From NCBI RefSeq assembly GCF_044324875.1, contig NZ_CP172185.1: 64,000 nt of DNA; one strand, given 5' to 3'. The notes under the pieces are model-generated. The model was given only the letters and a program-made list of their open reading frames with translations. It ran no database searches and was not told the DNA's origin. This document shows, piece after piece, positions 62,069 to 63,218 of the stretch (positions are counted from its first letter, which is position 1; every line of letters begins with the position of its first letter). The DNA comes from Escherichia coli (GTDB lineage: Bacteria; Pseudomonadota; Gammaproteobacteria; Enterobacterales; Enterobacteriaceae). The position numbers were made by a program, and so were the translations under genes.

Positions 62069-63218
62069 GTGTTCCAGTAAATTCCTTACCTGTGAAATTC
62101 AGTCCGAAAGGTGAGTGTATAATCTTCTTATCCACTCACCGAGTTAAATATTTTTGCAATAAGAAATATCCCACTTCCGCCATCACTGAATGTTCTGCAA
62201 AACGACAGATACGAGTTCTCTCCTGAAACAGCCCTGCGTCCTATAAATATGCTTACGTGTGGCAATACATCATGATTATTAATAGATGCAATGAATCATT
62301 AGGTAGCAATTGATAGGTCAAAACATATAGGATAATTCTTGTGTGATCTGTATTTTGTGTAGCCTGGAAATTAGTAAAATTCCTGGAGATAATCAGAGAG
62401 GGAATTTCAAATAGTATAATAATTTCCCAAGAAACTATTCGTCGATTTTAGGAAAAGTCTGCTCAGGTATATCTACCGAGGGATAATGCTGGCTGTAACG
62501 CTGGTTAAAATAGATACACAAAATAATCAAGATGTATATTTTAATCGACGAAAATAATTACTTCCGGGATTATTGATGCGACTTAAATAACACCATTTAA
62601 ATGTGATATAAATCACAAATATGGCTGTGAAGAGGGTGCTGTAGATATAAATAAGAAGTACATGAGTGAATTTTAAATAGGGGAATAGTTTCTCGCTAAA
62701 CAATTTGTTGGTAATCAATCACATGCGTTCTGGTTTGAGGCAGATTGCAGGTGTTGTTACGCATAAAATTCATAGGTGGTATTATAATCAAGTAGTTAAC
62801 AGTAATGGTAAAAAATAATTTCTTGCGAAATTAGCAGCCCATTTTGAATAAGTGTGTTCCGGAGTAATCCAGAGCGCATGCTGCTTTACGTCTTTTTCAA
62901 GCCATGTTGGTTAAGCAAAAAGAGGTAGAAATAATTTCCTGAGAAATTAACTCAACATTCTGAAATGGCCAGTTTTCTGAAATTACCAGAAGACCGAATA
63001 CATTCATGCCTGAAGAATGGATTAGAAGAAACGAGACGGAAATAGATCTATTTATCCCTGCGGAAATAATTTCTGATGAAATTGTTTTCGGCTATTAAAA
63101 AGGTCAAACCGGCTGAGTGAATTTTATCCAGTTACAAACAAGTATTACCTCCAGTGTATTGGTAGCTGTTAAGCCAGGGGCGGTAGCATACCTGAAGAGA
63201 ATAGGATCACATCACCAA
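62069..63218 (+). promoter_or_regulatory. kps region 3 promoter and long untranslated leader upstream of kpsM
   Basis: 1.15-kb AT-rich non-coding interval ending at kpsM; contains three copies of a palindromic motif and an ops element (listed separately). Confidence 0.55.
63179..63186 (+). promoter_or_regulatory. ops (operon polarity suppressor, JUMPstart core) GGCGGTAG, RfaH recruitment site
   Basis: Exact GGCGGTAG 8-mer 33 nt upstream of the kpsM ATG, in the expected orientation. Confidence 0.55.

Follow-up and report, generated by a model that had tools for sequence, protein, structure and literature searches.

Among the major virulence factors of extraintestinal Escherichia coli are the group 2 capsules (K1, K5, K2 and others), whose control by temperature and growth phase runs through the promoter PR3 and an unusually long leader upstream of kpsM. 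What is the role of this long leader? The published PR3 model names the proteins H-NS, SlyA, BipA, MprA, LrhA, FNR and Fur and contains few precise cis-elements; MprA and LrhA are reported to act on kps by unknown, possibly indirect routes. Here we analyse a 64,000-nt stretch of an E. coli genome (assembly GCF_044324875.1, contig NZ_CP172185.1; hereafter the window), in which positions 62069–63218 form the intergenic region between yghD (gspM, ending at 62068) and kpsM of a group 2 capsule locus. An earlier sequence-only reading had pointed to three regularly spaced copies of a palindromic motif in this leader. Our analysis identifies a six-copy, Escherichia-specific palindrome array with copy-number polymorphism. 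Defined here are the exact coordinates of a short palindrome that is strongly conserved and present five or six times, and two natural copy-number variants, which make the array a concrete target for asking what the long leader does.

A palindrome in six copies

The core AATAATTTC-N4-GAAATT occurs exactly at 62814, 62930 and 63065 and has no other exact match in the 64 kb. The three motifs quoted in the sequence-only reading are present, within 1–3 nt of where they had been placed: the first core (AATAATTTCTTGCGAAATT) covers 62814–62832 within a quoted motif that begins at 62811, the second covers 62930–62948 (motif from 62927) and the third 63065–63083 (motif from 63061). The third starts 114 bp 5' of the ops element, in agreement with the earlier figure of about 110 bp. 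Of the two spacings proposed, 135 bp is exact and the other is 116 rather than 117 bp; the quoted sequences are also correct overall, except that the first copy reads AAAATAATTTC and not GAAATAATTTC.

Three copies is, however, an understatement. A one-mismatch search together with a repeat finder adds degenerate copies at 62418 (AATAATTTCCCAAGAAACT), 62553 (AATAATTACTTCCGGGATT) and 62684 (AATAGTTTCTCGCTAAAC), giving six copies whose starts are spaced 135, 131, 130, 116 and 135 bp apart (mean 129.4). The full unit is a 22-bp palindrome with the consensus AATAATTTC-N4-GAAATTATT. Numbered from 5' to 3', and all on the forward strand, the degenerate copies are copy 1 (62418–62439; AATAATTTC CCAA GAAACTATT, one mismatch to the 9-4-9 consensus), copy 2 (62553–62574; AATAATTAC TTCC GGGATTATT, a perfect AATAAT-N10-ATTATT) and copy 3 (62684–62705; AATAGTTTC TCGC TAAACAATT, with G-C where the exact copies have A-T). 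The exact copies are copy 4 (62814–62835; AATAATTTC TTGC GAAATTAGC), copy 5 (62930–62951; AATAATTTC CTGA GAAATTAAC) and copy 6 (63065–63086; AATAATTTC TGAT GAAATTGTT), the last lying inside a longer palindrome, GGAAATAATTTC-N4-GAAATTGTTTTC.

This density is far above expectation for the window. With at most one mismatch, the pattern AATAATTTCNNNNGAAATT has six matches against 0.02 expected from shuffles, none of which reached six, and the inner dyad AATTTC-N4-GAAATT has four, all in the leader, against 0.26 expected. The full 22-bp unit with at most three mismatches occurs five times, against 0.05 expected.

Unit structure and copy-number variants

The six copies appear to mark a degenerate tandem array of units of about 130 bp (62378–63160, forward strand), as judged from in-register flanks and two in-register deletions. 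The flanks match at 481 of 1500 positions against 418 ± 26 in shifted controls (z = 2.4; 32% vs 28% identity). Tandem Repeats Finder returned nothing for 62000–63300 because the units are too diverged, and base autocorrelation peaks at lags 135, 67, 134 and 201, with lag 135 (z = 3.2) below the 95% shuffle maximum of 3.7. Natural copy-number variants with breakpoints in register, as a tandem array should produce, are found in two forms, lacking 116 and 647 bp.

Of 5426 complete E. coli genomes, 1720 carry the leader, each at a single place. The region of copies 4–6 is found in 1606 genomes, of which 468 have the long form seen here and the rest (∼71%) lack exactly 116 bp. The missing unit (62814–62929, from the alignment of BL21 and the alleles L006 and L007) stretches from copy 4 to copy 5, and the crossover falls within the AAATAATTTC of both. 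Copy 4, the first motif of the sequence-only reading, is thus present in this leader and absent from the short-form leaders, including that of E. coli 536. The long form is shared by E. whittamii, Escherichia sp. E1V33 and an E. coli lineage with 78% identity, and is therefore probably ancestral. Recurrent independent origins of the 116-bp deletion were considered and rejected, since the short forms mostly cluster and one old event plus recombination suffices.

The second variant comes from L106, a locus of group 3 type that contains a kpsM' pseudogene. This locus aligns to 62241–62475 and then to 63123–63260 of the window, and the intervening 647-bp segment (62476–63122), which carries copies 2–6, is missing. 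This length equals the distance from copy 1 to copy 6 (63065 − 62418), each breakpoint is found 58 nt 3' of the start of a motif, and the remaining leader keeps the promoter and a single copy 1, as AATAATTTC TACG AAAAC. The 647-bp difference is a collapse in register or, read in the other direction, an expansion by five units (647/5 = 129.4 bp). Group 3 capsules have been described as not temperature-dependent (PMC13410964). A one-copy leader combined with a lack of temperature dependence is a suggestive natural experiment, although it is a correlation only.

An array of this kind could also be read as a set of relics without function, left by the tandem duplication from which the leader arose, with the similarity of the motifs due to ancestry, gene conversion or palindrome-correcting template switching. 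It does resemble an old tandem repeat in its mean unit length, its flank register and its two in-register deletions, and one unit has been lost without evident cost in 71% of genomes. Whether this reading can hold depends on how the motifs themselves have evolved.

Constraint on the palindrome arms

We compared 47 distinct Escherichia leader alleles, taken from complete genomes and 51 metagenome contigs. In the arms of the exact copies (4–6), 5 of 45 columns are variable, against 316 of 736 in the rest of the leader (Fisher p = 1.3e-5), and the 4-bp spacers vary in 21 of 24 columns (p = 1.2e-5 vs the rest of the leader). The arms of the degenerate copies (1–3) vary in 14 of 45 columns, which brings the arms of all six copies to 19 of 90. 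Pairwise diversity is 0.038 in the arms of the six copies, 0.271 in the spacers and 0.082 in the rest of the leader, i.e. the arms are about seven times less diverse than their own 4-bp spacers. No spacer-length variant was found among the 47 alleles. Divergence of the spacers from the window (25–42%) is comparable to that of four-fold sites in yghD (16–28%), and the spacers are therefore roughly neutral, the leader constrained and the arms strongly constrained.

The individual copies follow this pattern. Copy 4 is present in 22 of the 47 alleles, and its arms are invariant except for one A>G change in the E. whittamii type. In copy 5, 42 of 47 alleles have unchanged arms; the variation consists of C>T changes giving T.G, and one lineage has a 10-bp insertion. 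The six inner arm pairs of copy 6 are invariant in 47/47 alleles around a spacer that reads TGCT, TGAT or CGGC. A perfect palindrome of CRP type between copies 2 and 3 (TGTGA-N6-TCACA, as AAATGTGAT-ATAA-ATCACA; 62603–62618) shows the same pattern, with a diversity of 0.004 in the arms and 0.176 in the spacer.

Conversion tracts or hitch-hiking cannot keep arms of 6–9 bp while the 4 bp between them drift; selection acts on the arm sequence itself. The arms are under strong purifying selection around a nearly neutral 4-bp spacer, and the palindrome looks functional, with the pattern expected of one that is read in a sequence-specific manner. By the same evidence the dyads are functional elements and chance occurrence is excluded. 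We therefore give little credence to the relic reading: the flanks have decayed almost to background, yet 15 core positions are identical in copies 4–6, and template switching predicts paired double changes, none of which is seen. The sequence-only reading had proposed regulator sites or repeated RNA structure. Its functional part is supported by conserved arms, free spacers and fixed length, a combination that fits both of its alternatives. Conservation in other group 2 leaders, which it had set beforehand as a test, is also found, the motifs being kept in E. coli, E. whittamii and Escherichia sp. E1V33.

Several alleles carry Dcm sites (CCAGG, CCTGG) in the spacers of copy 1 (62424–62432) and copy 5 (62937–62943). 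Where other alleles have CCAGG the window has CCAAG, the classic 5-methylcytosine deamination change, and such deamination may add to the hypervariability of the spacers.

The array is restricted to Escherichia. We surveyed 38 kpsM loci, one genome per species, 35 of them from other genera (Pantoea, Rahnella, Kluyvera and others; KpsM ≤86% identical): neither the motif nor a comparable repeated perfect 6-bp dyad occurs in these 35 leaders, all of which keep ops at about −40. A search of plasmids and phages gave no sequence similar to the array, and the 28-kb kps locus outside the leader contains only one match, with two mismatches. A dispersed or mobile repeat (REP, ERIC or MITE) was rejected because no copies occur elsewhere in the window, in plasmids or in phages and the array has a single genomic place. 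The leader diverges up to ten times as much as the adjacent kpsM coding sequence, and regulatory variation between lineages therefore sits in the leader and not in the transporter genes.

Promoter and transcribed leader

Are the copies transcribed? The kpsM coding sequence (an ABC transporter permease) occupies 63219–63995 on the forward strand, with its ATG at 63219, according to the open reading frame list and the RefSeq annotation of an identical locus. Upstream of it lies a JUMPstart element with ops (GGCGGTAGCATA; 63152–63190, forward strand; Rfam RF01707, 53.6 bits, E = 4e-11), the ops sequence being GGCGGTAG at about 63179. The PR3 start site is placed 741 bp 5' of kpsM in PMC8960920. 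In strain 536, which has the short form, the site 741 nt upstream of kpsM corresponds to window position 62362, which lies 6 nt 3' of an invariant TATTTT (62351–62356). We thus place the PR3 core promoter region at 62343–62393 (forward strand), with an inferred transcription start site near 62362; in the 5' part of this region, no stretch is better conserved than 62343–62361. An alternative promoter, TGGAAA-17-GATAAT at 62365–62393, is also the choice of a promoter scan, and the distances stated in a 2026 paper on the group 3 K96 capsule put its putative −35/−10 elements on the same site. In that paper, a fragment beginning at the right arm of copy 1 gave no promoter activity.

Either candidate start site lies 5' of copy 1, and all six copies are therefore transcribed. 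The array takes up the greater part of the AT-rich transcribed leader from PR3 to ops and kpsM. They start at about +57, +192, +323, +453, +569 and +704, and the exact copies span +453 to +725.

In the same region, 62311–62329 is homologous to a putative OxyR site that was mutated in the study of the group 3 (K96) kpsD promoter, and would be centred near −42 if transcription starts at 62362. The primer sequences of that study match the window on either side, so that a single promoter region is common to the group 2 and group 3 loci.

The dyads as possible RNA hairpins

Transcription of all six copies allows the dyads to act in the leader RNA, as A-U-rich hairpins (AAUUUC-tetraloop-GAAAUU, with 12 bp in copy 6) within an untranslated leader of 741–857 nt. 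Such hairpins would be bound by a protein, or would alter folding, pausing or the access of RNase or Rho before RfaH loads at ops, and their weak stems could give temperature sensitivity. We regard this as unlikely, though it deserves serious weight.

If pairing is restricted to a 40-nt span, copies 4–6 are predicted to form their hairpins with a probability of 0.94–1.0 at 37 °C and 0.98–1.0 at 20 °C. Those of copies 4 and 5 have 7 bp (−3.6 and −4.2 kcal/mol); the 12-bp hairpin of copy 6 (−10 kcal/mol, probability 1.0) includes two G.U pairs that are mismatches in the DNA, and copy 3 has G-C in place of the A-U of the other copies. In global folds, however, copies 4 and 5 pair with each other and their local hairpin probability falls to about 0.03, and the stems of copies 1–3 are poor (−1 to −2.3 kcal/mol), so that their motif hairpins are not predicted to form.

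The substitutions are similarly divided. Polymorphic arm positions in copies 2–6 comprise nine G.U-type and two A.C-type changes, which mostly keep pairing on the sense strand. This bias is not significant (p ∼0.16) given the background strand asymmetry, because A<->G changes are 1.7 times as frequent as T<->C changes on the sense strand throughout the leader (25.5% vs 14.8%). No exact copy contains a compensatory double change. Furthermore, an element acting through structure only would need neither identical stems in paralogous copies nor conserved unpaired flanks.

The untranslated region of PR3 is reported (PMC8960920) to modulate the amount of transcription that reaches kpsM and region 3, which suits an action in RNA. 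A scan of 62000–63400 against Rfam 15 recovered only JUMPstart (63152–63190), with no family over the motifs, and a scan of the leader gave no terminator-like site. The RyhB–kpsM pairing reported in PMC11988350 falls on ops and the final 150 nt of the leader and does not concern the motifs.

The sense strand of the leader is poor in C (102 C vs 148 G among 719 majority bases of window 62300–63150), with a positive GC skew throughout. This is the opposite of what a Rho-utilization site needs and is notable for an untranslated RNA of 740–860 nt.

The dyads as proposed sites on DNA

The reading that we tentatively favour, with somewhat less than even confidence, is that the dyads are candidate operator or nucleation sites on DNA, within the H-NS/SlyA-silenced region downstream of PR3. 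On double-stranded DNA they would serve as multiple operators for a symmetric dimeric DNA-binding protein, and jointly they would form part of a PR3 'downstream regulatory element', a nucleoprotein complex coated by H-NS and remodelled by SlyA. At 20 °C this complex would block transcription initiation or elongation through the leader; at 37 °C it would allow RNA polymerase through to ops, the loading point of RfaH. With several sites spaced by about 130 bp, cooperative binding, bridging or looping along the leader would become possible. As binder, a dimer of MarR type (SlyA, MprA) or another regulator would be more likely than H-NS itself, because H-NS needs no precise palindrome. The proU operon has a comparable H-NS 'downstream regulatory element'.

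Several observations argue for sites on DNA: (i) the stem sequence is identical in the paralogous copies 4–6 although their flanks have decayed; (ii) the 5' AA of AATAATTTC stays conserved even where it would be unpaired, in copies 4 and 5; (iii) the adjacent CRP-like site evolves in the same way and serves as an internal positive control; (iv) copy 2 falls in the 3' H-NS footprint and the leader is AT-rich (30–37% G+C, vs 50–60% in the neighbouring genes); and (v) the group 3-type leader has the same promoter without copies 2–6, in a group reported not to be temperature-dependent. On the fourth point, PMC8960920 gives H-NS footprints at PR3 of −135 to −21 and +141 to +219, and reports that the 3' site is essential for silencing at 20 °C. 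Copy 2, at +192 to +213, lies within that site if transcription starts near 62362, a mapping that we have inferred.

Against these stand a number of findings that weaken the operator reading. The three exact copies (+453 to +725) lie beyond the footprinted regions, and copies 3–6 are outside any published H-NS footprint. Copy 4 is dispensable in about 71% of genomes, the spacings of 116–135 bp make no constant whole number of helical turns, and all copies are transcribed, with copies 4–6 predicted to form local RNA hairpins. The link between group 3 and temperature is a correlation between loci that differ in many ways. Also, the motif is missing from the promoter region of kpsF (PR1), which the same proteins co-regulate.

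Nor does a consensus match support any of the proteins named in the sequence-only reading. The high-affinity 10-bp consensus of H-NS is reported to be tCGATAAATT (Lang et al. 2007); the H-NS motif TCGATAAATT, with up to two mismatches, is found in 0/6 copies and has one match in the leader, at 63121. We know of no defined consensus for MprA. The SlyA consensus, TTAGCAAGCTAA with a minimal TTA-N6-TAA (PMC5797941), is found in no copy on comparison by eye, copy 4 having only the half TTAGCA, and the IHF core lies beside copy 4, not inside it. Direct binding of MprA to PR3 is reported as not detected (PMC8960920).

A further possibility, to us distinctly improbable, is that a regulator without any previous link to capsule control uses the palindromes as operators, or that a novel protein binds them in the RNA. 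In that case the number of ∼130-bp units (one in the group 3-type, five in the short and six in the long leader) would set the gating of transcription through the leader. The array would then be the cis-determinant of thermoregulation in group 2 and would act as a 'rheostat' of capsule expression, tuned naturally through its copy number.

Other elements of the locus

The CRP-type palindrome at 62603–62618 lies at about +242. Its arms are essentially invariant in the 47 alleles while its 6-bp spacer varies, and it is lost in the group 3-type leader. CRP control of kps was not found in the literature examined. A conserved TATAAA at 62646–62651 might represent an internal CRP-dependent promoter.

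Three further elements lie close to the exact copies. AATCAAGTAGTTA (62787–62799), 15 nt 5' of copy 4, is a perfect match to the IHF core consensus (WATCAANNNNTTR) and is conserved in 36/47 alleles. A tandem direct repeat of 15 nt, TTCTGAAATGGCCAG / TTCTGAAATTACCAG (62958–62989, copies 17 nt apart), lies just 3' of copy 5 in a well-conserved block and shares CTGAAATTA with the K-12 mprA promoter region. The third, AAATAGATCTATTT (63040–63053), is a perfect palindrome of 14 bp with a GATC (Dam) site, situated between copies 5 and 6; it is not conserved in the most divergent types, L001 and L002, and is partly deleted in the L007 type.

At the 3' end of the leader, comparison of 63150–63300 with alleles L001–L012 reveals an abrupt shift of divergence near ops. 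Over the initial 309 nt of kpsM, 0–6% of four-fold sites are different from most of the other alleles (13% for L001), whereas the leader directly 5' differs by 6–22% and the four-fold sites of yghD by 16–28%. This suggests a recombination boundary at JUMPstart/ops, with kpsMT exchanged between lineages and an older history of the leader. In E. coli DG343-1 (L005, locus positions 1220–1527), a full long leader continues with 96.7% identity to just past ops; beyond it the sequence diverges completely, without kpsM, and another gene set is joined at ops.

At the other end, the stop codon of yghD is followed after 40 nt by a hairpin, GGTGAGTG...CACTCACC (62110–62140, −14.5 kcal/mol). In other alleles the outer stem is kept, and the inner stem and loop differ (−20 to −22 kcal/mol). 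This may be a conserved 3' structure or a terminator of the gsp operon; no T-run follows it.

Comparison with known regulatory systems

Does the palindrome belong to a characterized regulator? No tested regulator consensus fits all copies. Fis, Fur, ArgR, Lrp, LysR-type (T-N11-A) and OxyR consensus sequences were each rejected on this ground. A resemblance to the RcsAB box was dropped, the K92 RcsA/RcsB paper reporting no RcsAB box in PR3 (PMC3673037), and a likeness to the mprA promoter amounted to CTGAAATTA only. In the literature searched, GAAATAATTTC appears only within a polymerase chain reaction primer, the primary PR3 report (Xue et al. 2009) lying beyond that search, and nothing relevant on kpsM repeats or stem-loops was found.

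Operators of a known regulator of the IclR/AllR, NagC/Mlc or CRP/FNR family, which would tie capsule to carbon or amino-sugar metabolism, are to us a very unlikely explanation. The IclR/AllR box is the 15-bp palindrome TGGAAAT-N-ATTTCCA. Counted against this box, TAGAAATAATTTCCT in copy 5 matches at 12/14 positions, copy 6 at 11/14 and copy 4 at 9/14; the outer TGG/CCA positions, including the TGG of the left arm, are not conserved between copies, however, and the conserved 3' GAAATT falls outside the box. About 20 consensus sequences were compared, and a match with two mismatches to one of them is therefore expected by chance. Literature on bacterial operators of the form TTC-N4-GAA gave only a LexA motif of Verrucomicrobia and eukaryotic STAT6.

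For NagC/Mlc, the arms TAATT-N8-AATTA resemble the nagE operator TTAATT-N9-AATTAA, as read from MG1655. The rule for these proteins demands TT/AA at −6,−5 and +5,+6 around a central base, i.e. TT-N9-AA (PMC4288165), whereas the kpsM palindrome is even-centred, with TT...AA spacings of N8 or N6, never N9. The nagE–nagB pair, through which NagC represses by DNA looping, is alike in its AT-rich quasi-palindromes, its TTAATT/AATTAA arms and its variable, uncontacted centre, and its function rests on cooperating sites ∼100 bp or more apart. It differs in having two sites against six here, and the kpsM sites lie inside a transcribed leader.

The 5-4-5 layout equals that of FNR sites, and FNR and Fur are reported to bind PR3 (PMC8960920). 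Operators of the CRP/FNR family share with the palindrome two inverted half-sites of 5–6 bp, a free spacer of fixed length and the evolutionary pattern seen at 62603–62618. Their half-sites, TTGAT or TGTGA, are nevertheless unlike ATTTC, and ATTTC/GAAAT matches no characterized member.

Among RNA systems, thermometers of the fourU type are the closest parallel, being weak A-U/G-U-rich hairpins, as is predicted here in the 5' untranslated region of a temperature-regulated virulence operon. Known thermometers, however, occlude the Shine-Dalgarno sequence or start codon, whereas the kpsM hairpins are repeated and lie 130–800 nt 5' of the start, and kps thermoregulation is reported to be transcriptional.

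The published control of PR3 by H-NS and SlyA (Xue et al. 2009, as summarized in PMC8960920) concerns the same AT-rich locus, with sites on both sides of the transcription start. As summarized there, that account has broad footprints and no repeated palindrome; the exact copies lie 230–500 nt 3' of the footprinted region, and the motif is unlike the H-NS and SlyA consensus sequences.

A last comparison is with the SlyA box of the Salmonella pagC–pagD region, AATATT-N10-ATTATT, which is also bound by EmrR/MprA (as quoted in PMC6469979). The related pattern AATAAT-N10-ATTATT is met without mismatch by copy 2, with one by copies 1 and 6 and with two by copies 4 and 5. It is of low information: with up to two mismatches it has 14 matches in the window against 2.6 expected, six in the leader and eight elsewhere. 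Far from the kps leader, three such matches overlap within 54 bp at 20812–20865. The pagC box differs from the kpsM palindrome in that it leaves unspecified the inner TTC...GAA, which are the best-conserved bases of the exact copies, and in that the right outer hexamer is not conserved in copies 4–6 (ATTAGC, ATTAAC and ATTGTT). The likeness lies in the 22-bp unit, the 6-10-6 layout and the AT-rich outer hexamers, with copy 2 matching 11 of 12 arm bases, and both SlyA and MprA are known positive regulators of kps.

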